A DNA stretch of 64,000 nt from Vulcanimicrobiales bacterium (GTDB lineage: Bacteria > Vulcanimicrobiota > Vulcanimicrobiia > Vulcanimicrobiales > Vulcanimicrobiaceae): contig JBBRLI010000004.1 of the NCBI GenBank assembly GCA_038231455.1, positions 96,001 to 160,000 on the forward strand, written 5' to 3'. This document shows positions 24,971-37,443 of this stretch, piece after piece. Positions within the stretch are counted from its first letter, which is position 1; each line of letters starts with the position of its first letter. The position numbers and the translations under genes were made by a program. A model generated the notes under the pieces. That model had not been told where the DNA came from and made no database searches. It saw nothing but the letters and a program-made list of their open reading frames with translations.

Positions 24971-27900
24971 ATGTCGTCTTCCCCCGGCTATGCCGAGCTC
25001 CACTGCTGGTCGAACTTCAGCTTCCTCGAGGGTTCATCGCACCCCGAAGAGTTGATCGGGCGCGCCCACGCGCTCGGCTTGCGCGGAGTCGCCCTCACCG
25101 ACCGGGACGGCGTCTACGGGGCGGTCCGCTTCGCCAAAGCCGCGCGCGACCTCCCCGGTTTTGCCGCCATCTGCGGCGCCGAGCTGACGCTCGAATTGGA
25201 ACCGCCTGCGCGCGTTCGGGGGCGTGAAAAAGGCGCGCGTCCCGCAAGCGAAGTGCCGACCGATACGCCGCGCATCGTGCTCCTCGCCGAGAACGCGACC
25301 GGCTATGCCAATCTTGCCCACCTCATCTCCGCTGCTCAACTGCGCGGCCGCAAACGCGACGCGCGCCTCCATCTCGAGGATCTTGCGGGTCGTACCGAGG
25401 GGCTCATCGCGCTCTCCGGCGGACGTAACGGTCTGCCCGAACGCGCGCTCATCCGGCGCGACGACGCGCAGGCGCTGGCGTGGGGGGCGCAACTGCGCGA
25501 TGCGTTTCCGGGCCGCTTTTACATCGAATTGCAGCATCACTTACGGCCGGAAGACGGGGCGCTCGTCCAAGCGCTGGTGCGGCTAGCGGCGCAGCTCGAC
25601 GTGCCGTACGTCGCGACCAACGGCGCGGCGTATAGTGTCCGCGAAGATGCGCGGCTGTGCGATATTCTGACCTGCGTCAAATACAAGACGACGTTGCAGA
25701 ATGCCGGTACCATGCTCCGGCCCAACGCCGAGTCGTATCTGAAATCGCCCGCGCAGATGGCGCGGCTCTTCGCTCCATATCCGCTCGCGCTTGCAAACAC
25801 GCTCGTCATTGCAGAACGCTGTGCGTTTCGCCTGGACAAACTCCACGGACAGTTCCCGCACTTCCCGATTCCCGCAAGCGAAACAAGCCACCAATCGTAT
25901 CTGCGCACGCTCGTTTATGCGGGCGCGAAACGACGCTATGCAATGCCGCTCGATCCCAAAGTCGAACGCCAGCTCGAATACGAACTGGGGATCATCGCGC
26001 GCATGGATCTGGCGGGTTACTTCATCGTGGTGTGGGACATCGTACGCGCAGCCGAAGAACTCCAAGTGCTCTGCCAAGGACGCGGTTCGGCAGCAAATTC
26101 CGCGGTCTGCTACGCGCTGCACATTACCGCGGTCGATCCGGTGGGACACGGTCTGCTCTTCGAACGCTTTCTCTCGGAAGAACGCAAAGAAGTGCCCGAT
26201 ATCGATATCGATTTCGCGCATCAAGATCGCGAAAAAATCATTCAATACGTGTACGACCGCTACGGCCGCGAACATGCGGCGATGGCAGCGGAGGTGATTA
26301 CGTATCGCACGCGCTCGGCGATTCGCGACGTCGGTAAGGCGATGGGACTCTCGCTCGCGCAAGTCGATACGATCGTGAACGATTACGACGCACGTGAGTC
26401 GCTCGCGGGTGCGCTCGGTGCGAGCGCCGCGGCGGTGAGCGCGCTCCCCGAGTCGGTGCGCAAACGGCGCGATCTCGATGCGGGGTCGAATCAGCGTCTC
26501 TCGCGAGCGGAGGCGGGCGACCAACCCGCCGCGTCGAGCGGCCGCGCACACACACCGGGCTTCGGTTCGGTCGACGACCTCGCGCGCGACGTGCGAGCGC
26601 GCACCGATCCGTCGCGCGCGATTCCATCCGTCGTCAAACCGCGTCCCCAGCATCTCTACGGGTTCGTTGCCAAAGACTTTGGCCCCGATCCCGATCCCGC
26701 GCATCCCAGTTCCGTGGGCGGAGAACTCGGCGATACGCTGATGGCGATCTGCCGGCGCATCGATGGCTTTCCGCGTCATATGGGTATCCATTCCGGCGGC
26801 ATGGTGATCACGCGCGATCCGCTCGTGCAAGTCGCGCCGGTCGAATGGGCGACGATGCGCGACCGCACGATCATTCAGTGGGACAAAGACGACCTCGGCG
26901 ATCTTGGTCTGATTAAAATCGATCTGCTCGGTCTTGGCATGCTCTCGCTCTTACGCGATGCCTTTACGCTCTTTGGGCGCGTGTATCCGCAGCGGCCGCC
27001 GCTCTCGCTTGCCTCGATCCCGCAAGACGATCGGCCGACGTACGAGATGCTGCAGCGCGGCGATTCGATCGGCGTCTTTCAAGTCGAGTCGCGCGCGCAG
27101 CAATCGATGCTGCCGCGTCTTAAACCCGCGTGCTTCTACGATCTCGTCATGCAGGTCGCGATCATCCGACCCGGTCCCATTCAAGGCGACATGATCCACC
27201 CGTTTCTGCGCCGCCGCAATGGCCTCGAACCCGTCACCTATCCGCATCCCAAACTCAAACCCATTCTCGAACGGACGCTCGGCGTACCGCTCTTTCAAGA
27301 GCAAGGCATGCGCATGGCGATCGAAGCGGCGGGGTTCACGCCCGGCCAAGCCGATCAACTGCGGCGCGCGATGGGCAACAAACGTTCGCGCCAGCGCATG
27401 GCCGAGATCTATCCCAAGCTCATCGACGGAATGGTCGAAAACGGCATCGACCGTGCGAGTGCCGACGCACTCTTTCACATGCTCGAAGGCTTCGCCGACT
27501 ACGGCTTTCCGGAATCTCACGCGGCCAGTTTTGCACTGCTCGCCTACGCATCGGCGTATGTCAAATGTCACGAACCCGCGATTTTCTGCGCAGCGATTCT
27601 CAACGTTCAGCCGATGGGATTCTACGCAACCGAAGTACTCGTCAACGATGCCAAACGTCACGGCGTCGTGGTGAAACCGATCGCGGTGAACGAGAGCGAG
27701 TGGTGGAGTTTTGTCGACAAAGCCGGTTCCTTGCGCCTGGGTTTCCATCTCGTGCGCGGCATGGGCGAGGCGCAGCGCGAGAAACTGGAGGGCGCACTCC
27801 AAAGCGGCGGCGAGTTCGAAGACGTCGTCGATTTCGCGCGCCGCACGGGACTCGCGCGTGAGGCGCTCGAGAATCTGGCTGCGGCAAATGCGTTCTCGCC

Positions 27901-28438
27901 GTGGTTCGATTCGCGCCGCGAGGCGATGTGGGCGCTGCGCGGACTCGACGAACGCGAAGCGCGTGGGGAACTCGGCCGCGGGATGGAGATCGAAGAACCT
28001 GCCGCGCAGTTCGCCTCGTTGCAGCCGCTCGAAGCAACGGCGCTCGACTTGCATGCAACCGGCGTCTCCGACGTCCAGCCGATCGACCATTTCCGCCCCG
28101 AACTCGATCGGCAAAACGTGCTCGCGGCAAACCGCTTACCCGCGATGCCGAAGAATCTGGTGTGCAAAGTCGCCGGGATCGTGATCACGCGTCAACGCCC
28201 CGGCACGGCGAAAGGCTTCGTCTTTCTCACCCTCGAGGACGAAACGGGTCTGGTCAACGTGATCGTGCGCCCAGACGTCTACGAACGCAATCGCCGCGTC
28301 GTGCGACAATCGCGCGCGCTCATCATCGAGGGTGTACTGCAAAAAGATCAAGGCACGATCGACGTGATCGCCAAGCGCTTTTGGCCGCTCGATACGAGCG
28401 GCACGGCCGACAACGTCCGCGCGCGAAACTTTCACTAG
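24971..28438 (+). CDS. dnaE2: Error-prone DNA polymerase DnaE2 (ImuC)
   Basis: YAELHCWSNFSFLEG, GRGSAANS, PDIDIDF, QVESRAQ, YGFPESHA, RQRPGTAKG and C-terminal RNFH. Confidence 0.97.
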   Translation: MSSSPGYAELHCWSNFSFLEGSSHPEELIGRAHALGLRGVALTDRDGVYGAVRFAKAARDLPGFAAICGAELTLELEPPARVRGREKGARPASEVPTDTPRIVLLAENATGYANLAHLISAAQLRGRKRDARLHLEDLAGRTEGLIALSGGRNGLPERALIRRDDAQALAWGAQLRDAFPGRFYIELQHHLRPEDGALVQALVRLAAQLDVPYVATNGAAYSVREDARLCDILTCVKYKTTLQNAGTMLRPNAESYLKSPAQMARLFAPYPLALANTLVIAERCAFRLDKLHGQFPHFPIPASETSHQSYLRTLVYAGAKRRYAMPLDPKVERQLEYELGIIARMDLAGYFIVVWDIVRAAEELQVLCQGRGSAANSAVCYALHITAVDPVGHGLLFERFLSEERKEVPDIDIDFAHQDREKIIQYVYDRYGREHAAMAAEVITYRTRSAIRDVGKAMGLSLAQVDTIVNDYDARESLAGALGASAAAVSALPESVRKRRDLDAGSNQRLSRAEAGDQPAASSGRAHTPGFGSVDDLARDVRARTDPSRAIPSVVKPRPQHLYGFVAKDFGPDPDPAHPSSVGGELGDTLMAICRRIDGFPRHMGIHSGGMVITRDPLVQVAPVEWATMRDRTIIQWDKDDLGDLGLIKIDLLGLGMLSLLRDAFTLFGRVYPQRPPLSLASIPQDDRPTYEMLQRGDSIGVFQVESRAQQSMLPRLKPACFYDLVMQVAIIRPGPIQGDMIHPFLRRRNGLEPVTYPHPKLKPILERTLGVPLFQEQGMRMAIEAAGFTPGQADQLRRAMGNKRSRQRMAEIYPKLIDGMVENGIDRASADALFHMLEGFADYGFPESHAASFALLAYASAYVKCHEPAIFCAAILNVQPMGFYATEVLVNDAKRHGVVVKPIAVNESEWWSFVDKAGSLRLGFHLVRGMGEAQREKLEGALQSGGEFEDVVDFARRTGLAREALENLAAANAFSPWFDSRREAMWALRGLDEREARGELGRGMEIEEPAAQFASLQPLEATALDLHATGVSDVQPIDHFRPELDRQNVLAANRLPAMPKNLVCKVAGIVITRQRPGTAKGFVFLTLEDETGLVNVIVRPDVYERNRRVVRQSRALIIEGVLQKDQGTIDVIAKRFWPLDTSGTADNVRARNFH

Positions 28439-30998: not shown

Positions 30999-31067
30999 AG
31001 AGTGCGCGGTGTCGCTTGGAACGATTCCAAGCGGCACCGCCGCCCTGCTCGTTGAATCGACCGTTTG

Positions 31068-32162
31068 ATGGCGTATACGCTCGTACACTGTTCGGACGTT
31101 CACCTCGAAACCGTTTTTACCGAACTGCGCGGCGGCGCACGGCGGCGTGCGGCTCTTGCAGACGCGTTCGTGCGCATCGTCGACCTGGCGTGCGAACGCA
31201 AAGCGGACGCCCTCACGATCGGCGGCGACCTTTTTGAATCCGCTCGGGCAAGCGAACAGACGGCCCGGTTTCTTGCAGCACAGTTCGCCCGCTTCGACGG
31301 AGCGATCTTCATTGCGCCGGGCAACCACGATCCGCACGGTGAGAGCGCACTGCTCTCGCGCAGCGATTTGCCCGCCAACGTCCGCATCTTTCGCGAGGCG
31401 GCTTGGAGCGCGTTTCCGCTTGCAGACAATCTAACGCTCTATGGCTACGGCCACACGCCCGCCGAGCCCGGCCGTCCGTTTGCCGGCGCACGCTTCGAGC
31501 GGCCGGGCGTACGCATCGCGCTCGTTCATGGCAGCGATGAAGAACGGTGTCCGCCGAATAAGCGCGCGACCGCGCCGTTTACGGCGATGGAAATCGCGGC
31601 TTCGGGCGCGACGCTGCTGTTGACCGGACACTATCACGGCGGCTACATCGCCGAACACGACGGTCGGCCGCTCATCGCGTATCCCGGCTCGCCCGAACCG
31701 ATCAAATTCGGCGAACGCGGCACGCACGGCGCGCTCGTCGTCACGATCGAGGACGTGTCCGTTGCAATCGAAAGCGTCGAAATTGCGCGCACGCGACTGA
31801 TCGACCTCGACATCACGGTGGACGGTGCGTCGAGCGAACACGCGATCGCGGAGTTAGTCGAAGCGGCACTCGTCCCGTACGGAAACGACGACTACTTGCG
31901 TGCCCGCCTGACCGGCACGATTCCCAGTGGTACGCGCATCGATCGCGCGTTTCTCGAAGAGCGCTCGAACGCACGTCTAGGCGCACTCGAACTCATCGAT
32001 GCAACGGTGAGTGCGGACTACGACGCCCTCGCGCGCGAGCCGAACGTCCGCGGTCACGTCGTGAACGATTTGCTCGCGCGGGCGCACGACGGAGACGCCG
32101 ATGCGGATGCGGCGCTGCGCTACGTCGTCGCGGCGTTTGCGGGCGGCGAGATCGCACCGTGA
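31068..32162 (+). CDS. Metallophosphoesterase DNA repair nuclease (YhaO/SbcD/Mre11-like)
   Basis: SDVHL, GGDLF, PGNHD, VHG, GHYH, YPGSPE. Confidence 0.9.
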   Translation: MAYTLVHCSDVHLETVFTELRGGARRRAALADAFVRIVDLACERKADALTIGGDLFESARASEQTARFLAAQFARFDGAIFIAPGNHDPHGESALLSRSDLPANVRIFREAAWSAFPLADNLTLYGYGHTPAEPGRPFAGARFERPGVRIALVHGSDEERCPPNKRATAPFTAMEIAASGATLLLTGHYHGGYIAEHDGRPLIAYPGSPEPIKFGERGTHGALVVTIEDVSVAIESVEIARTRLIDLDITVDGASSEHAIAELVEAALVPYGNDDYLRARLTGTIPSGTRIDRAFLEERSNARLGALELIDATVSADYDALAREPNVRGHVVNDLLARAHDGDADADAALRYVVAAFAGGEIAP

Positions 32163-34615
32163 AACTTACGCAACTCCACGTCGACGGCTTCGGCGGGTTG
32201 GTCGATCGCACGATCGACTTTGCGCCCGGCCTCACGATCGTGTACGGCGAGAACGAAGCGGGGAAATCGACGCTCGCACGCGCGATCGTTGCATCGCTCT
32301 ACGGCGTTGGCCGCAAAGAAGACCGCGACGCGTGGCGTCCCTGGAGCGGCGCACGCTACGCATCGATTCTGCGCTACGAGTTGGCAAGCGGCGAGGCGAT
32401 CGAAGTGCAGCGCGAGTACGATCGCGATCCCAAAGGCGTCCGCGTGTACGACCGCAGCGGCAACGATATCAGCGCGCAGGTGTCGATCGGGAAGACCGTC
32501 GCACCGGGCGAGGCAGCACTGCGCATTCCACTCGAAGTGTTTATTAACGCCGCCTGCGTGCAACAGCAACACGTCGCAATTGACGGCACGCGTGCGAAAA
32601 GCATTACGACCGCGCTCGCGCATGCGCTCGACGGCGGACCCAAAGACGATGCGGCGCTCGGGGCCTTGGGGCGACTCGACATCGCACTCAAAACCCATGT
32701 TGGCACGGAACGGGCAACCAAAAACAATCCGTTACGCGCCGCGACCGAACGCGCCGCGGACCTCGGGCGCCGCGCACAAGAAGCGCGGATACGCGTCGAA
32801 GCGCTCGCTGAGCTGCGCGCGCGACACGAAGGCGCACTGGTCGAACACGCGCGCATCGCCCAGTCGCGCGCCGAATTCGACCGCCGCGCCGCCGCGTATC
32901 GCGCGCGCGCGATACGAACGCGGTTAGACAATCTCGCCCGAATCCGCGACGAGCTCGCTGCCGTCAACGAAGAGCGCGCACGCTTCGAGGACGTCGCGCG
33001 CTTCGATGCTCCCCGCGTCGGCGAACTCGACGCGGCGTTTTACGCCGTCGGGAGTGCAGCCGAACTCCTCGCGCATGCGGAATCCGAAGATCGCGAACGG
33101 CGCATGCGCTCCGAAGAACATCACGAACTTAGCGCCCGGCGGGCCGATGTGGGAACGATCGACGACGTTGCCTTTGAGTCGCTCGTTTCGGCCGCAGCCG
33201 AAGCCGATGGCGCGCGCGCGCGCAGCGCTGCCGCACAAACCAATGCCGCAAACGCACGACGCGACTCGGGAAGCGGTGCGACCGTCCTCGGTGCCGGCGT
33301 TGCTGCCGGACTCGCGGCGCTTGCCGTTGCGGTCGGCTTCGCCATCGCGCACGACTGGATCGTCGCCGGGATCGCGGCGATCGTCGCCGGGGCGATTCTC
33401 CTCGTCGTCGGATTGCGCGCGAACGGGCGCGCGCAGCGCGGGCGCGATGCGGCGCGCCTCCAGCAGACCGCTGATGCCGCCCTTGCCGCCGAACAAGCGG
33501 CTGCATCCGCCGTCGCAGCGGTGCTCGAACCACTCGGACTTGCCTCGATCGACGATCTCACGCGACGACGCGACCGCTTACGAGAGCTCGAAGCGCTCGC
33601 GCGGTCGGAAGGACGCGCAAGCGAGCAGTTCGCCTCGATGCGCACGCGACACGCAGACGCAGCGCGCGCCTTCGACACGCTTGCCGGGACACTCTTGCCC
33701 GATGCCGGCGGCACGCGCGAACAGATTCGCGATGAGGCGAAACGGCGCGCATCGCGGCGCTACGAACGCGACGGGCTCGACGCCGCGCGCGGGATGATCG
33801 AACTCCGTCGCGGCGAGGTGCTCGGCGGCGAAGATGAATTCGCGCTCGAACGGGAGCTCGCGGAGCTGGCCGCCGAGGGCGTCGAAGCGGCACCGGAAGA
33901 ACCGGACTTCTCGCAGCGGCTCTTCGATCATGAGCGCGCAGAAATCGAGTCGCGATTCCGTGCGGCGGAGATCACCTTGGCGACGCTCGTCGCTGACCGC
34001 CGGAATGCCGAAGAACACGCAACCGATCTCGCAACGCTCGATGAAGCCTGCGCACTCGCGCGCTCCGACATAACGAAGCTCGAGACGTTCGCGCGCGCGA
34101 TCGCGCTCGCACGCACGACGCTCGAGACACGCACGCGCGAGGCGCACGAAAAATTTGCGCGGCGGCTCGAAGATTATGCCGCCGAACAATTTACGACGAT
34201 CACCGGCGGTCGCTACACGGATCTCTTCGTCGATCCGACAACCCTCGAGGTGCGGGTGCGCGTTCCCGAAACGCGGGCGATCGTCGAGCTCGAAGCGCTC
34301 TCCGCCGGGACGCGCGAGCAAGCGTACCTCGTCGTGCGCTTCGCCATGGCGCGCATGTTTAGCGAGGGTCTCGAGACACCGCCGCTCTTACTCGACGATC
34401 CGTTCGCATTTTGGGATACGGCACGCATCGAACGTTGCTTGCCGATTCTCATCGGCGGAGCGCAGACGATGCAGGCGATCGTCTTTACCGCAAGCGCGCA
34501 GCTGGCCGAGGCCGCTCGCGCCGCAGGCGCGGCGGTCGAAACCTTAGACCGGGACGCCGTCGGGGATTTTGTCGACGCGCTCGATCGCGATGAGAATCTG
34601 CTCTTTCCCCGCTAG
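32159..34615 (+). CDS. YhaN/SbcC/Rad50-like coiled-coil ATPase with two central TM segments
   Basis: GENEAGKST Walker A, LSAG signature, LLLDDP Walker B; GTGA-coupled to the nuclease. Confidence 0.9.
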   Translation: MKLTQLHVDGFGGLVDRTIDFAPGLTIVYGENEAGKSTLARAIVASLYGVGRKEDRDAWRPWSGARYASILRYELASGEAIEVQREYDRDPKGVRVYDRSGNDISAQVSIGKTVAPGEAALRIPLEVFINAACVQQQHVAIDGTRAKSITTALAHALDGGPKDDAALGALGRLDIALKTHVGTERATKNNPLRAATERAADLGRRAQEARIRVEALAELRARHEGALVEHARIAQSRAEFDRRAAAYRARAIRTRLDNLARIRDELAAVNEERARFEDVARFDAPRVGELDAAFYAVGSAAELLAHAESEDRERRMRSEEHHELSARRADVGTIDDVAFESLVSAAAEADGARARSAAAQTNAANARRDSGSGATVLGAGVAAGLAALAVAVGFAIAHDWIVAGIAAIVAGAILLVVGLRANGRAQRGRDAARLQQTADAALAAEQAAASAVAAVLEPLGLASIDDLTRRRDRLRELEALARSEGRASEQFASMRTRHADAARAFDTLAGTLLPDAGGTREQIRDEAKRRASRRYERDGLDAARGMIELRRGEVLGGEDEFALERELAELAAEGVEAAPEEPDFSQRLFDHERAEIESRFRAAEITLATLVADRRNAEEHATDLATLDEACALARSDITKLETFARAIALARTTLETRTREAHEKFARRLEDYAAEQFTTITGGRYTDLFVDPTTLEVRVRVPETRAIVELEALSAGTREQAYLVVRFAMARMFSEGLETPPLLLDDPFAFWDTARIERCLPILIGGAQTMQAIVFTASAQLAEAARAAGAAVETLDRDAVGDFVDALDRDENLLFPR

Positions 34616-34936
34616 TTTGAGAAACGTGATCGTCACGTCGACCGAACCGTGTGCGAAGGGAAAGAAGTAGTCGAACGATTCGCTGACGCGGTCTTTTGAC
34701 TTGATGAACTCGTACATCCGGCCTTCGAATGCTTTGACCGCGGTACACGGCGCGATATCGTGGAAGAAGTTGCGCCCGATGACGGCTTGGGCATCTTTGT
34801 GCGCCATGCGTGCTTCGTATTGATTATACGCAACGATGTTGCCGACATAATCGACGACGACCGCGCCGAACGGCAACTCGTCGAGTCCGTCAAACGAGAT
34901 ATCGACGATGCGCCAGAGGCGTTCGCTATCGGGCAC
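34544..34936 (-). CDS. pyp: Photoactive yellow protein (PYP) homologue
   Basis: LDELPFGAVVVD..GNIVAYNQYE...VIGRNFFHDIAPCT aligns with PYP; Y42, E46 and C69 equivalents conserved. Confidence 0.85.
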   Translation of the reverse strand: MPDSERLWRIVDISFDGLDELPFGAVVVDYVGNIVAYNQYEARMAHKDAQAVIGRNFFHDIAPCTAVKAFEGRMYEFIKSKDRVSESFDYFFPFAHGSVDVTITFLKLAGKEQILIAIERVDKIPDGVPV

Positions 34937-34938
34937 TG

Positions 34939-35481
34939 CTACTTACGCTCCAGCTTGCGCACGGCAGCGAGCGTATTCTCAACGTGTTTGTCGGGGTCCA
35001 GATCCGAGTACACGTAGGCGATTTTGCCGTCTTGCGCGATTACATACGACGTCCGGTTGGCAAACGTATTGGCAACGATCGAATCGTACGAATGCGCGAC
35101 GATCAGCTTCTCGTCGGCTGCGACCGGAAACTTCGAGCCGCATTCGCTCACCGAGAATTTGTTGAGCGTTGCGATGTCGTCACCCGAGACGCCGATGACC
35201 GTTGCGTTCATCTTCTTATACTCGTTCATGCTCGAGGCAAAGTCGTGCGCTTCTTTGGTGCAGCCCGACGTGAACGCCTTGGGATAGAAGTACACCACGA
35301 CCGGCCCTTTTTTAAGCGCGGTTGCAAGGTCGAACGTGAACGGCTTGCCGCCCAGAGTCGCCGGCAAAATAAACGTCGGCGCGGATTCGCCGACTTTCAT
35401 GCTTGCCGAGGCAACGGCGGTGGTGAACGCGACAGCACCCGCAAGGGCGAGCCAACCGGTAAGGACCGAACGTCGTTTCAA
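34939..35481 (-). CDS. Peroxiredoxin (BCP/PrxQ type) with signal peptide
   Basis: YFYPKAFTSGCTKEA, VIGVSGD, RTSYVI. Confidence 0.9.
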   Translation of the reverse strand: MKRRSVLTGWLALAGAVAFTTAVASASMKVGESAPTFILPATLGGKPFTFDLATALKKGPVVVYFYPKAFTSGCTKEAHDFASSMNEYKKMNATVIGVSGDDIATLNKFSVSECGSKFPVAADEKLIVAHSYDSIVANTFANRTSYVIAQDGKIAYVYSDLDPDKHVENTLAAVRKLERK

Positions 35482-35483
35482 AG

Positions 35484-36632
35484 CTACAACCCCATCATGC
35501 GAGCGATTACAAGGCGTTGGACTTCGTTTGTCCCCTCGCCGATCTCATTAATTTTCTGATCGCGGTACATCCGCGACACCGGATATTCATCCATGAAGCC
35601 GTAGCCGCCGTGGATTTGGACGGCCTCGTTGACGACCCGGCGCGAGACTTCACCCGAGTAGAGCTTAGCAAGCGAGGCCGTCATCCCAAAGTCGCGATCG
35701 TTGTCTTTCTCCCACGCGGCCTTGAGGATCATCGTCTTTGCGTGCTCGATCTCCATCTTCATGTCGGCGAGCTTGAACTGAATCGCCTGGAACTTGGAGA
35801 TCGGCTGCCCGAACTGGTGGCGCTCTTGCGCGTATTTAAACGCCTCATCGAACGCCCCCATCGCAAGGCCTACCGAGAGCGCCGCGACCGAGATGCGACC
35901 GCCGTCGAGGATTTTTAGGAATTGCTTGAGCCCTTGGCCGCGCTCGCCCAAGAGCATTTCCTCGGGGACCGTGGCATCGTTGAACGAGAGCTCGCGGGTA
36001 TCCGACGCCTTCCAGCCCATCTTGTTGTATTTCTTGGAGCGGGTGAAGCCGGGCGTCTCCTGGGGGACGATGATGTTCGAGATCTCGCTGCGGCCTTTGG
36101 CCGTGGTCCCGGTGACGGCGGTAATCGTGGTGCCGCCGGTCACATCGGTGCCGGAGTTGGTAATGAAGGCCTTGGTGCCGTTGATGACCCACTGGCCGCC
36201 TTTGAGCTCAGCTTTCGTGGCCGTGCCGCCCGCATCGCTGCCGGCGCCGGGCTCCGTGAGACCGAAACCCCAGAGCTTCTCTCCTTTGGCAAGCGGGACG
36301 AGGTACTTCTGTTTTTGCGCTTCGGTGCCGAAGTAATAGAACGGCGTCGCGCCAAGCGAGACGTTTGCGGCAAGCGTGATCCCAACCGAGGCGTCGGCCC
36401 GGGAAATCTCCATCACCGCAAGCGCATAACTCACGGTATCGGCACCCGCTCCACCGTACTCTTCGGGGAACGGTAAACCAAAGAGTCCGAGTCCCGCCAT
36501 TTTCTTGACCAGATCGTAGGGGAACTCGGCATGCCGATCGAGATGTTCGGCTTGCGGCGCGACTTCGTTTTGCGCGAAGTCTCGGCAGAGGTCTTGAATT
36601 GCTTTTTGTTCGTCGGAGAGATCGAAATTCAT
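35484..36632 (-). CDS. Acyl-CoA dehydrogenase
   Basis: FGLTEPGAGSD, NGTKAFITN, QFGQPISKFQAIQFKLADM, QIHGGYG, IGEGTNE. Confidence 0.95.
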   Translation of the reverse strand: MNFDLSDEQKAIQDLCRDFAQNEVAPQAEHLDRHAEFPYDLVKKMAGLGLFGLPFPEEYGGAGADTVSYALAVMEISRADASVGITLAANVSLGATPFYYFGTEAQKQKYLVPLAKGEKLWGFGLTEPGAGSDAGGTATKAELKGGQWVINGTKAFITNSGTDVTGGTTITAVTGTTAKGRSEISNIIVPQETPGFTRSKKYNKMGWKASDTRELSFNDATVPEEMLLGERGQGLKQFLKILDGGRISVAALSVGLAMGAFDEAFKYAQERHQFGQPISKFQAIQFKLADMKMEIEHAKTMILKAAWEKDNDRDFGMTASLAKLYSGEVSRRVVNEAVQIHGGYGFMDEYPVSRMYRDQKINEIGEGTNEVQRLVIARMMGL

Positions 36633-36732
36633 CAAAGGTATCCCTAAGTGGCGACCGGAAAAATCCCTCTAATAATCCCACGGCACAAGCCGTGTGGATG
36701 CATCCTCCGCCGGATGCATCTGTGAGGACCAT

Positions 36733-37443
36733 GTGATCGCACTTCGCGGCGTTTCGCTCACGTATCCCAACGGCGTCCGGGCACTCGAAGATGTCGACTT
36801 AGAAGTTGCGAAGGGAGCCTTCGTCTTTCTAGTCGGCCACTCCGGTACGGGCAAGTCGTCGCTCCTGAAACTGCTCTACAAAGAAATCGTTCCGACGCGC
36901 GGTCAGGTGCACGTCGACAACATTCGCGTGGACACGCTCAAGCGGCGCAAGATTCCGTATCTCCGTCGGAACGTGGGCGTCGTCTTTCAAGACTTCAAGC
37001 TGCTCTCACACAAAACGGTGTGGGAGAACGTTGCCTTCGCCCTCCAGGTCACAGGTGCAGCGACCAAAGACGTCATGCGTCAGGTGCCGCGTGCGCTCGA
37101 CCTCGTCGGCCTCTCGCACAAAGCGCGGATGTTCCCGGGTGAACTCTCGGGCGGGGAGCAGCAACGTGCCGCGATCGCCCGGGCGCTGGTGAACAATCCC
37201 AAGATCTTGCTCTGTGATGAACCGACCGGCAACCTCGATCCGGTCAACACCACCGAGATCATGGAACTGCTGATGCGCATCAACCTCAAAGGAACGACGG
37301 TGCTCGTCGCCACTCATAACCAAGCGGTCGTCGACCGCATGCGCCGTCGCGTCGTGCGTCTGGAAGACGGGCGCATTCTCAGCGATGAAGAGCGAGGATT
37401 TTACGTACGTGGACTGGGGCAAAGTCAAGTTCTTTCTGGGTGA
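36733..37443 (+). CDS. ftsE: Cell division ATP-binding protein FtsE
   Basis: GHSGTGKS, IPYLRRNVGVVFQDFKLL, LSGGEQQR; GAGGA SD before GTG. Confidence 0.95.
   Translation: MIALRGVSLTYPNGVRALEDVDLEVAKGAFVFLVGHSGTGKSSLLKLLYKEIVPTRGQVHVDNIRVDTLKRRKIPYLRRNVGVVFQDFKLLSHKTVWENVAFALQVTGAATKDVMRQVPRALDLVGLSHKARMFPGELSGGEQQRAAIARALVNNPKILLCDEPTGNLDPVNTTEIMELLMRINLKGTTVLVATHNQAVVDRMRRRVVRLEDGRILSDEERGFYVRGLGQSQVLSG

Follow-up and report, generated by a model that had tools for sequence, protein, structure and literature searches.

How does a photoactive yellow protein (PYP) obtain its chromophore when the enzymes that usually provide it are not encoded alongside? This question is raised by a locus in a Vulcanimicrobiales bacterium (assembly GCA_038231455.1), located within a stretch of 64,000 nucleotides of contig JBBRLI010000004.1 (positions 96,001 to 160,000 of the forward strand), hereafter the window. 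The locus consists of three open reading frames (ORFs), acd, prx and pyp, all on the minus strand and separated by two intergenic gaps of 2 nt each:

34544..34936, minus strand: pyp, 130 aa, single-domain photoactive yellow protein homolog, the 'site A' paralog
34939..35481, minus strand: prx, 180 aa, BCP/PrxQ-like peroxiredoxin
35484..36632, minus strand: acd, YngJ/FadE19-type acyl-CoA dehydrogenase with the IGEGT catalytic motif

The first-pass annotation of the window described this tightly spaced run, which the ORF coordinates bear out, and proposed that the acyl-CoA dehydrogenase (ACAD) supplies p-coumaroyl-CoA to the PYP independently of tyrosine ammonia-lyase (TAL). The evidence presented here leads to a different reading, to which we assign a probability of roughly 0.7: the PYP would sense blue light through bound p-coumarate, its gene having been attached to a housekeeping run, and would be loaded, in the source genome (G000), via a TAL and a general CoA ligase. 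The source organism is a phototrophic soil member of the Vulcanimicrobiaceae (Eremiobacterota), and its genome (93.7% complete) carries pufLM, bch genes and four PYP homologs.

Identification of the photoactive yellow protein

The best PDB matches of the 130-aa protein are to PYPs, namely the PYP domain of Rhodospirillum centenum Ppr (1mzu, 1.2e-15) and also the PYP of Halorhodospira halophila, with Y37, E41 and C64 aligned to Y42, E46 and C69 of the latter. These three residues are invariant in all 20 aligned family homologs (20 of 25 loci). By the residue lists of PMC12826048, seven of the nine positions of the p-coumaric acid (pCA) pocket are identical and the other two conservatively replaced (I31V, V66I), and 12 of the 15 further conserved PYP positions are identical as well. 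When an AlphaFold model of the protein (pLDDT 76) was used as the Foldseek query, PYP structures ranked at the top (best 2phy, 5.7e-11, TM 0.76-0.79), whereas the first non-PYP PAS domain gave a weaker match (3e-7). Thus, the key residues, the pocket positions and the PYP-type PAS fold by which the family is recognized (Xing 2022; Dohmen 2025) are all present, and the protein, judged by its sequence and predicted fold, is a genuine single-domain PYP. The assignment originally made from the Y37/E41/C64 signature is accordingly upheld by the PDB alignment, the pocket residues and the Foldseek ranking. The protein has in common with the H. halophila PYP (2phy) and the PYP domain of R. centenum Ppr (1mzu) the fold, the single-domain size, the Tyr42/Glu46/Cys69 triad and most of the pocket residues, but it is only ~30% identical to them, carries the substitutions T50A, R52K, M100H and W119I relative to H. 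halophila PYP, lacks a pyp-pcl-tal operon and is one of four paralogs.

The acyl-CoA dehydrogenase and peroxiredoxin genes

The run is framed by the following genes:

31065-32162: Mre11/SbcD-like phosphoesterase gene, paired with the SMC/Rad50-like gene
32159..34615, plus strand: SMC/Rad50-like ATPase gene, convergent with pyp, marks the conserved site
36694..37443, plus strand: ABC ATPase gene of the ftsE type (Pfam ABC_tran), divergent from acd, heads an ftsE-ftsX-type cluster

The ftsE-ftsX name of the divergent cluster is one that we presume from its sequence and context. The acd gene may start at a TTG codon (36635, 383 aa) or at an ATG codon (36632, 382 aa), and at the other end of the run the 3' end of pyp and the convergent SMC/Rad50-like gene share 72 nt. 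The pair of Mre11/SbcD-like and SMC/Rad50-like genes (window 31065-34615) is kept at the same site throughout the family.

Comparison with 61 related genomes showed that acd is present as a single ortholog (68-100% identity) in 49 of them and PYP in 10. Of the best 30 of these 49 acd loci, viewed with 1.5 kb on each side, 28 have a divergent ftsE, 22 have prx as the next gene and 4 have pyp following; in three genomes (G005, G018 and G035) the order is acd-prx-SMC and the pyp site is empty. Among the best 80 of 500 confirmed PYP loci, 15 are at site A, and of these listed loci 11 include acd and 14 include prx, four having the order ftsE-prx-pyp without acd; in G025 pyp likewise occupies the site without acd, which is found ~177 kb away. 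The two locus sets probably share genomes, so their counts are not additive. The divergent ABC ATPase gene is the most constant neighbor of both acd and site-A pyp, and prx is the closest traveling partner of the latter. The acd-prx-pyp neighborhood is therefore conserved in part: acd remains at 11 of the 15 listed site-A loci, but pyp is found at only 4 of the 30 acd loci and persists without acd.

The window ACAD is the best match in G000 for YngJ-type enzymes of Bacillus (57.6%) and FadE19-type enzymes of Tsukamurella (54.7%). The IGEGT motif, with a Gly preceding the catalytic Glu, is common to all three and occurs at 30 of the 30 acd loci; in ACADs, this Gly makes room for a beta-branch. 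The best annotated matches in a plasmid collection come from a Bacillus operon of acd, ligase, carboxylase and HMG-CoA lyase genes, which we take to correspond to the yng operon with its role in leucine breakdown, and from a Tsukamurella operon of carboxylase, acd, MaoC and CoA ester lyase genes, which matches the fadE19 operon. Bacillus YngJ, mycobacterial FadE19 and the PDB entry 7szv share 55-58% identity and the motif with the window enzyme, which differs from its YngJ and FadE19 counterparts in being detached from the carboxylase and lyase genes and divergent from ftsE. In G000, the methylcrotonyl-CoA-carboxylase-like subunits and HMG-CoA lyase are encoded on contigs C27 and C84, neither of which contains an ACAD match. 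The fadE19 operon (bkaR regulon) is speculatively tied to the breakdown of branched-chain amino acids in the portion of the report available to us (PMC3920632). An alignment of 11 pyp-linked ACAD orthologs (a twelfth linked locus yielded no sequence) and 20 unlinked ones contained no column, out of 384, that separates the two groups. The sequence comparisons make it most likely that the window ACAD is an isovaleryl-CoA or short branched-chain acyl-CoA dehydrogenase of leucine catabolism. We also considered a dedicated arylpropionyl-CoA dehydrogenase serving PYP; this candidate was rejected given the lack of co-occurrence and stable linkage with pyp and of features that set the enzyme apart from housekeeping ACADs.

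The product of prx contains the peroxidatic motif PKAFTSGC, which follows the PxxxT/SxxC pattern. In 33 of the 34 aligned rows another Cys lies 40 residues beyond the first, the remaining row being cut off. Its best NCBIfam models are BCP and PrxQ, both with scores under the cut-off. An N-terminal segment resembling a signal peptide, as judged by eye, is present in all 34 rows and absent from PYP, so that the two proteins probably reside in different compartments. The proposal of an exported peroxiredoxin is thus supported by the N-terminus, whereas its coupling of blue-light sensing to oxidative stress is not specific to PYP because prx follows acd mostly at loci without pyp (18 of the 22 acd-prx loci among the best 30 of 49).

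Chromophore enzymes in the source genome

Contig C4, on which the window lies, contains no match to PF00221, TIGR02372 or PF00501, and the earlier remark that neither TAL nor p-coumarate-CoA ligase (pCL) is encoded nearby was thus correct. The search of the whole genome gave a divided result: a TAL and an Fcs-like ligase were found on other contigs, but no TIGR02372-type pCL. Two aromatic ammonia-lyases are encoded in G000, of which the C20 copy is a histidine ammonia-lyase (HAL) in a hut operon. The other one (C31:6997-8589) has as its best PDB match the R. sphaeroides entry 2o6y (4.7e-121), its YHLATG aligning with HHLASG; the equivalent of His89 is kept, the Ala-Ser-Gly motif that forms the 4-methylideneimidazole-5-one (MIO) group is intact, and the scores fall below the cut-offs of the HAL models. 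Entry 2o6y is labeled a putative histidine ammonia-lyase; we take it to be the Rhodobacter sphaeroides TAL. His89 is the residue that determines TAL specificity, and the paired entry 2o78 has Phe at this position. The TAL assignment is further supported by 67% identity to the lyase that another genome, G124, encodes within a complete pyp-pcl-tal cassette. On these sequence features, the C31 lyase is a TAL of the Rhodobacter type, sharing His89 and the MIO motif with the R. sphaeroides enzyme but differing from it in having no pcl or pyp alongside and in preceding a rhodopsin-crtY-blh run. In this region (C31:3640-8589, L028) TAL is directly upstream of, and on the same strand as, rhodopsin, crtY and blh, so that chromophore genes of two light systems adjoin. 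No remnant of pcl or pyp was found beside the G000 TAL.

Fifteen AMP-binding matches were found in G000. One of these (C1:122262-123878) is assigned to the 'feruloyl-CoA synthase family' in the Atlas at 0.99, has no hydratase-lyase gene alongside and shares 39% identity with the ligase encoded by a hydratase-aldehyde dehydrogenase-ligase cluster of Ralstonia; we regard this Fcs-like protein as the best pCL candidate in the genome, which is a guess from sequence. Two other leads were discarded. The AMP-ligase encoded directly upstream of a pyp paralog in G025, at first sight a pCL, is FadD7-like, and no pyp lies near its counterpart in G000 (65% identical). The search for a hydroxycinnamate-degrading hydratase-lyase in G000 yielded only a match at 9e-34 on a contig other than that of the ligase. 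Given a TAL and a candidate ligase, G000 has no need of a route through the ACAD.

As to the canonical pyp-pcl-tal arrangement, none of the best 80 of 500 pyp loci has a lyase or Fcs match within up to 5 kb on each side. The complete cassette of G124 (C303:7816-10953, L243) encodes a PYP that scores above the TIGR02373 cut-off and retains T50, M100 and W119; this cassette was probably acquired separately. The G124 genome contains seven matches to the PYP profile altogether.

Distribution of PYP, TAL and phototrophy in the family

The wider survey covered 201 genomes of the family, all metagenome-assembled genomes (MAGs) of at least 85% completeness. PYP counts are profile matches, two of which contain a stop; the genomes are kin, so that the counts are not independent, and absence from a MAG is not proof. 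PYP was detected in 45 genomes and pufLM in 23; 41 genomes have the Fcs-like ligase and 2 the G000-type TAL (E <= 1e-104). A PYP match is present in 23 of the 23 pufLM genomes (weak and partial in G129) compared with 22 of the 178 others, and the median copy number is 4 in the phototrophs and 1 in the remaining carriers. A broad lyase profile found more than one lyase in only two PYP carriers, G000 and G197 (all three of the latter being of the Ser-His type), and no ammonia-lyase match at all in 8 of the 45; upon re-testing with PF00221, three of these 8, including the single-contig genome G066, were still empty, as was G023. In the 15 non-TAL carriers for which the lyase motif was read, it is invariably Ser-His, that is, of the HAL type. 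Promiscuity of HAL was considered as a general source of chromophore and fails for the 8 carriers that have no lyase match. In G001, a sister species that belongs to the same genus as G000, there are four PYP matches, and upstream of rhodopsin only TAL codons 494-517 persist (24 codons, 83% identical), which suggests that TAL was lost and PYP kept.

The Fcs-like ligase is weakly associated with PYP (17 of the 45 carriers versus 24 of the 156 other genomes) and occurs in 13 of the 23 phototrophs. As a partner of site-A pyp it appeared in 5 of 5 genomes of the 61-genome set, a link weakened by the 17 of 45 in the larger set, so that it is retained as a candidate only. In G015 and G035 it lies inside aromatic catabolic clusters.

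Unpublished genomes contribute to several counts (G009 and G020 to the 30 loci and the 20 unlinked ACADs, the same two and G059 to the 49, G213 to the 45 genomes with PYP and to the 8 of them that lack a lyase match, and G020, G022, G029, G110, G115 and G155 to the lyase matches), and the conclusions are independent of them. Two peculiarities of the light-related genes were noted in passing. First, pufLM occurs in two or three copies with identical scores in G005, G031, G095 and G079, ~26-37 kb apart in the first three, which reflects either real duplication or an assembly artifact. Second, the rhodopsin gene match in G023 (C290:19136-19880) is split into three pieces across frames, representing a broken gene or an assembly error.

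Paralogs and their genomic sites

PYP paralogs of the family fall at recurring sites and form five groups, with little or no variation in the Tyr/Glu/Cys residues and the NFF-D-APC pocket:

Site A: the window pyp, at the end of the acd-prx run
Site B: at rplM/truA, facing a Crp-type regulator, in some cases alongside an MCP signaling-domain gene
Site C: within the photosynthesis cluster, bchZ-(dprA)-pyp-hemL
Site D: solitary
Site E: near thiC, in genomes without pufLM

The site-B paralog of G000 (C20:33115-34176, L030; L163-L204 in relatives) lies between truA and rplM and diverges from a Crp/Fnr-type regulator, as in many genomes, and an MCP signaling-domain gene lies downstream of site-B pyp in G025 and in five of the best 80 loci of 500. 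This neighborhood is the best lead to an output partner of PYP. Apparent crp matches over pyp itself stem from an over-long query ORF and were disregarded. The site-C paralog (C8:77894-78310, L029; L182-L216) is embedded in a bchXYZ-(dprA)-pyp-hemL-like order that recurs in about a dozen of the best 80 loci of 500, and is a candidate light regulator of photosystem genes; the presence of dprA inside a photosynthesis cluster is odd in itself. In G023 (C140; L128:3646-5814), PYP is fused in a PYP-PAS-GGDEF-EAL protein, a type already listed for the phylum in the supplement of PMC12826048. In a tree of PYPs, 18 site-A sequences cluster together, though weakly supported (82/72) and with a long-branch warning; the tree serves as an orthology check only, not as evidence of origin.

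The closest named homologs, among the matches listed, are mostly Vulcanimicrobiota/Eremiobacterota records. Six records titled Armatimonadota, Rhodospirillales, Janthinobacterium or Alphaproteobacteria (L150, L154, L155, L157, L161 and L187) show Vulcanimicrobiaceae gene order and encode a 79-86% identical ACAD or RplM. These labels may be wrong, in which case they could distort published PYP taxonomies. Elsewhere in the window (24971-28438), a DNA polymerase III alpha-like ORF, presumably of the DnaE2 type by its motifs, contains a long low-complexity insertion near residues 480-590.

Competing explanations for chromophore supply

Under the reading that we favor, p-coumarate would be bound as a thioester to C64, with Y37 and E41 hydrogen-bonding the phenolate, and the protein would sense blue light in the cytoplasm; with His in place of Met100, its dark recovery may be slow. 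The pyp gene would have joined an older acd-prx run, located between ftsE and the SMC-like gene, at its 3' end within a mainly phototrophic subclade, and probably rides on the acd-prx transcript. The ACAD would oxidize short branched acyl-CoAs and the exported Prx would reduce peroxide, neither making the chromophore; p-coumarate would instead be produced in G000 by the C31 TAL and activated by a broad hydroxycinnamate-CoA ligase, with the C1 Fcs-like gene as the best candidate. As for the output of PYP, paralogs B and C hint at a role in controlling transcription and motility. The reading is built on sequence, fold, gene order and distribution, from which we infer the binding, the photocycle, the co-transcription and the substrates.

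Several results weigh against this reading. The PYP equivalog model TIGR02373 does match the window protein, but at 88.3 bits, below its cut-off of 143.05; given that this model covers only 20% of PYP homologs according to the passages available from PMC9664959, the miss excludes the narrow equivalog and not the PYP family. Retention of acd directly upstream in 11, and of prx in 14, of the 15 listed site-A loci implies that the run is fairly stable. Our scan found no sigma-70-like promoter on the minus strand; it returned two promoter-like sites, both on the plus strand, and terminator matches near the chance level, and was thus uninformative. The best TIGR02372 score in G000 is 51.6 bits against a cut-off of 334.7, and the G124 pCL as query finds nothing better than 8e-5, so that singling out one ligase from the 15 AMP-binding matches is guesswork; five near-complete PYP carriers likewise have no TIGR02372 match above the cut-off. 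Finally, only 2 of the 45 PYP carriers have the G000-type TAL, indicating that TAL is dispensable in the lineage and leaving room for a ligand other than self-made p-coumarate.

This last point is the starting point of the alternative that survives best, a tentative one that mainly concerns the TAL-less relatives and is compatible with the reading above: the PYPs would be loaded only by scavenged plant hydroxycinnamates (p-coumarate, caffeate or ferulate) via general CoA ligases, would signal light only in the presence of plant phenolics, and the TAL of G000 would be an optional extra. The gap between 45 PYP genomes and 2 TAL genomes, the 8 carriers without a lyase match, the HAL-type motif in 15 of 15 other carriers and the four PYPs beside a TAL remnant in G001 are all consistent with scavenging, as is the Fcs-like ligase in the five site-A genomes, and uptake is raised as a possibility in the available text of PMC12826048. 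Set against this are the patchy occurrence of that ligase (17 of 45 carriers, 13 of 23 phototrophs) and its place in aromatic catabolic clusters in G015 and G035, the fact that no transporter was identified, the TAL of G000 itself, and the derivation of the counts from related MAGs.

It is less probable, and in our view unlikely, that the pocket is kept in a protein that is no photoreceptor in vivo, binding another acyl group or ligand or partnering the ACAD and Prx in sensing acyl-CoAs or redox state. Such a role could accommodate the lack of a canonical pCL in G000 and in the five near-complete carriers, the scarcity of TAL, the four substitutions at positions 50, 52, 100 and 119, and the 22 PYP genomes without pufLM. 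It does not sit well with the near-invariance of the Tyr/Glu/Cys and NFF-D-APC pocket across five paralog groups, with PYP in every phototroph at a median of 4 versus 1 copies, with one paralog in the photosynthesis cluster (bchZ-dprA-pyp-hemL) and another facing a Crp-type regulator, sometimes with an MCP, or with the signal-peptide-like N-terminus that Prx has and PYP lacks.

Least probable is the route first proposed, in which the ACAD desaturates 3-(4-hydroxyphenyl)propionyl-CoA to p-coumaroyl-CoA and so loads PYP without TAL: the 2-nt spacing, acd directly upstream in 11 of the 15 listed site-A loci, the need for some TAL-free supply in 43 of the 45 carriers, the near-universal occurrence of the ACAD and a side activity of some ACADs on arylpropionyl-CoAs speak for it, but the gene is a class-wide core gene present where PYP is absent, is missing from 4 of those 15 sites, belongs with its IGEGT motif to the YngJ/FadE19 orthologs without pyp-linked residues and matches the caffeyl-CoA reductase CarC only in 17th place in the PDB (6.7e-88 versus 1.3e-131 for the top match), no phloretate source was identified, and G000 has a TAL. 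The partial linkage, the His89-type TAL encoded elsewhere and the leucine-operon type of the ACAD largely speak against the proposal.

Implications for the Vulcanimicrobiaceae

PYP homologs of Eremiobacterota have already been listed, with 11 accessions, in the supplement of PMC12826048, where the sections available also state that 5% of pyp operons contain TAL and 32% contain pCL, and suggest that TAL is encoded elsewhere or the chromophore taken up; the passages and supplement available from PMC9664959 have no Eremiobacterota entry. The published proteins belong to the same phylum and family as the window PYP, and the absence of TAL from its operon is the published norm. The published Eremiobacterota PYP passages and supplements searched made no mention of the acd-prx context, the paralog sites, the link to pufLM or a lack of TAL across whole genomes; the available text of PMC12826048 contains neither 'acyl-CoA' nor 'peroxi', and its supplements neither 'acyl-CoA dehydrogenase' nor 'peroxiredoxin'. 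Our literature search, whose coverage mostly leaves subscription papers outside, returned no paper on PYP paralogs or their chromophore supply in this phylum. With PYPs of the phylum and TAL-poor pyp operons already in print, the window PYP is one more PYP, and the locus itself is ordinary because the suggested logic of the operon comes down mostly to an accident of position.

A TAL-independent supply is a real question for the relatives and not for G000, and the significance of the finding lies in the lineage-wide TAL gap rather than in the acd-prx-pyp operon. We tentatively suggest, as a possibility and not as our expectation, that phototrophic Vulcanimicrobiaceae have a lineage-specific set of multiple PYPs, nearly all members being without self-made chromophore, which is switched on by hydroxycinnamates from moss, peat or roots or through an undescribed TAL-free route. 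If this is true, PYP would be a joint sensor of plant phenolics and light, and the occurrence of pyp genes without TAL, a puzzle already in the literature, would be explained. The puzzle is now placed in a lineage that has a cultured member with blue-light phototaxis: the isolate WC8-2 has one PYP homolog and shows blue, green and red phototaxis in the sections available from PMC9758169, and the PYPs are candidate receptors for the unexplained blue-light phototaxis of the phylum. PYP-rich phototrophs without TAL, together with the natural pair of G000, with TAL, and G001, with its remnant, make the question of chromophore supply directly testable.

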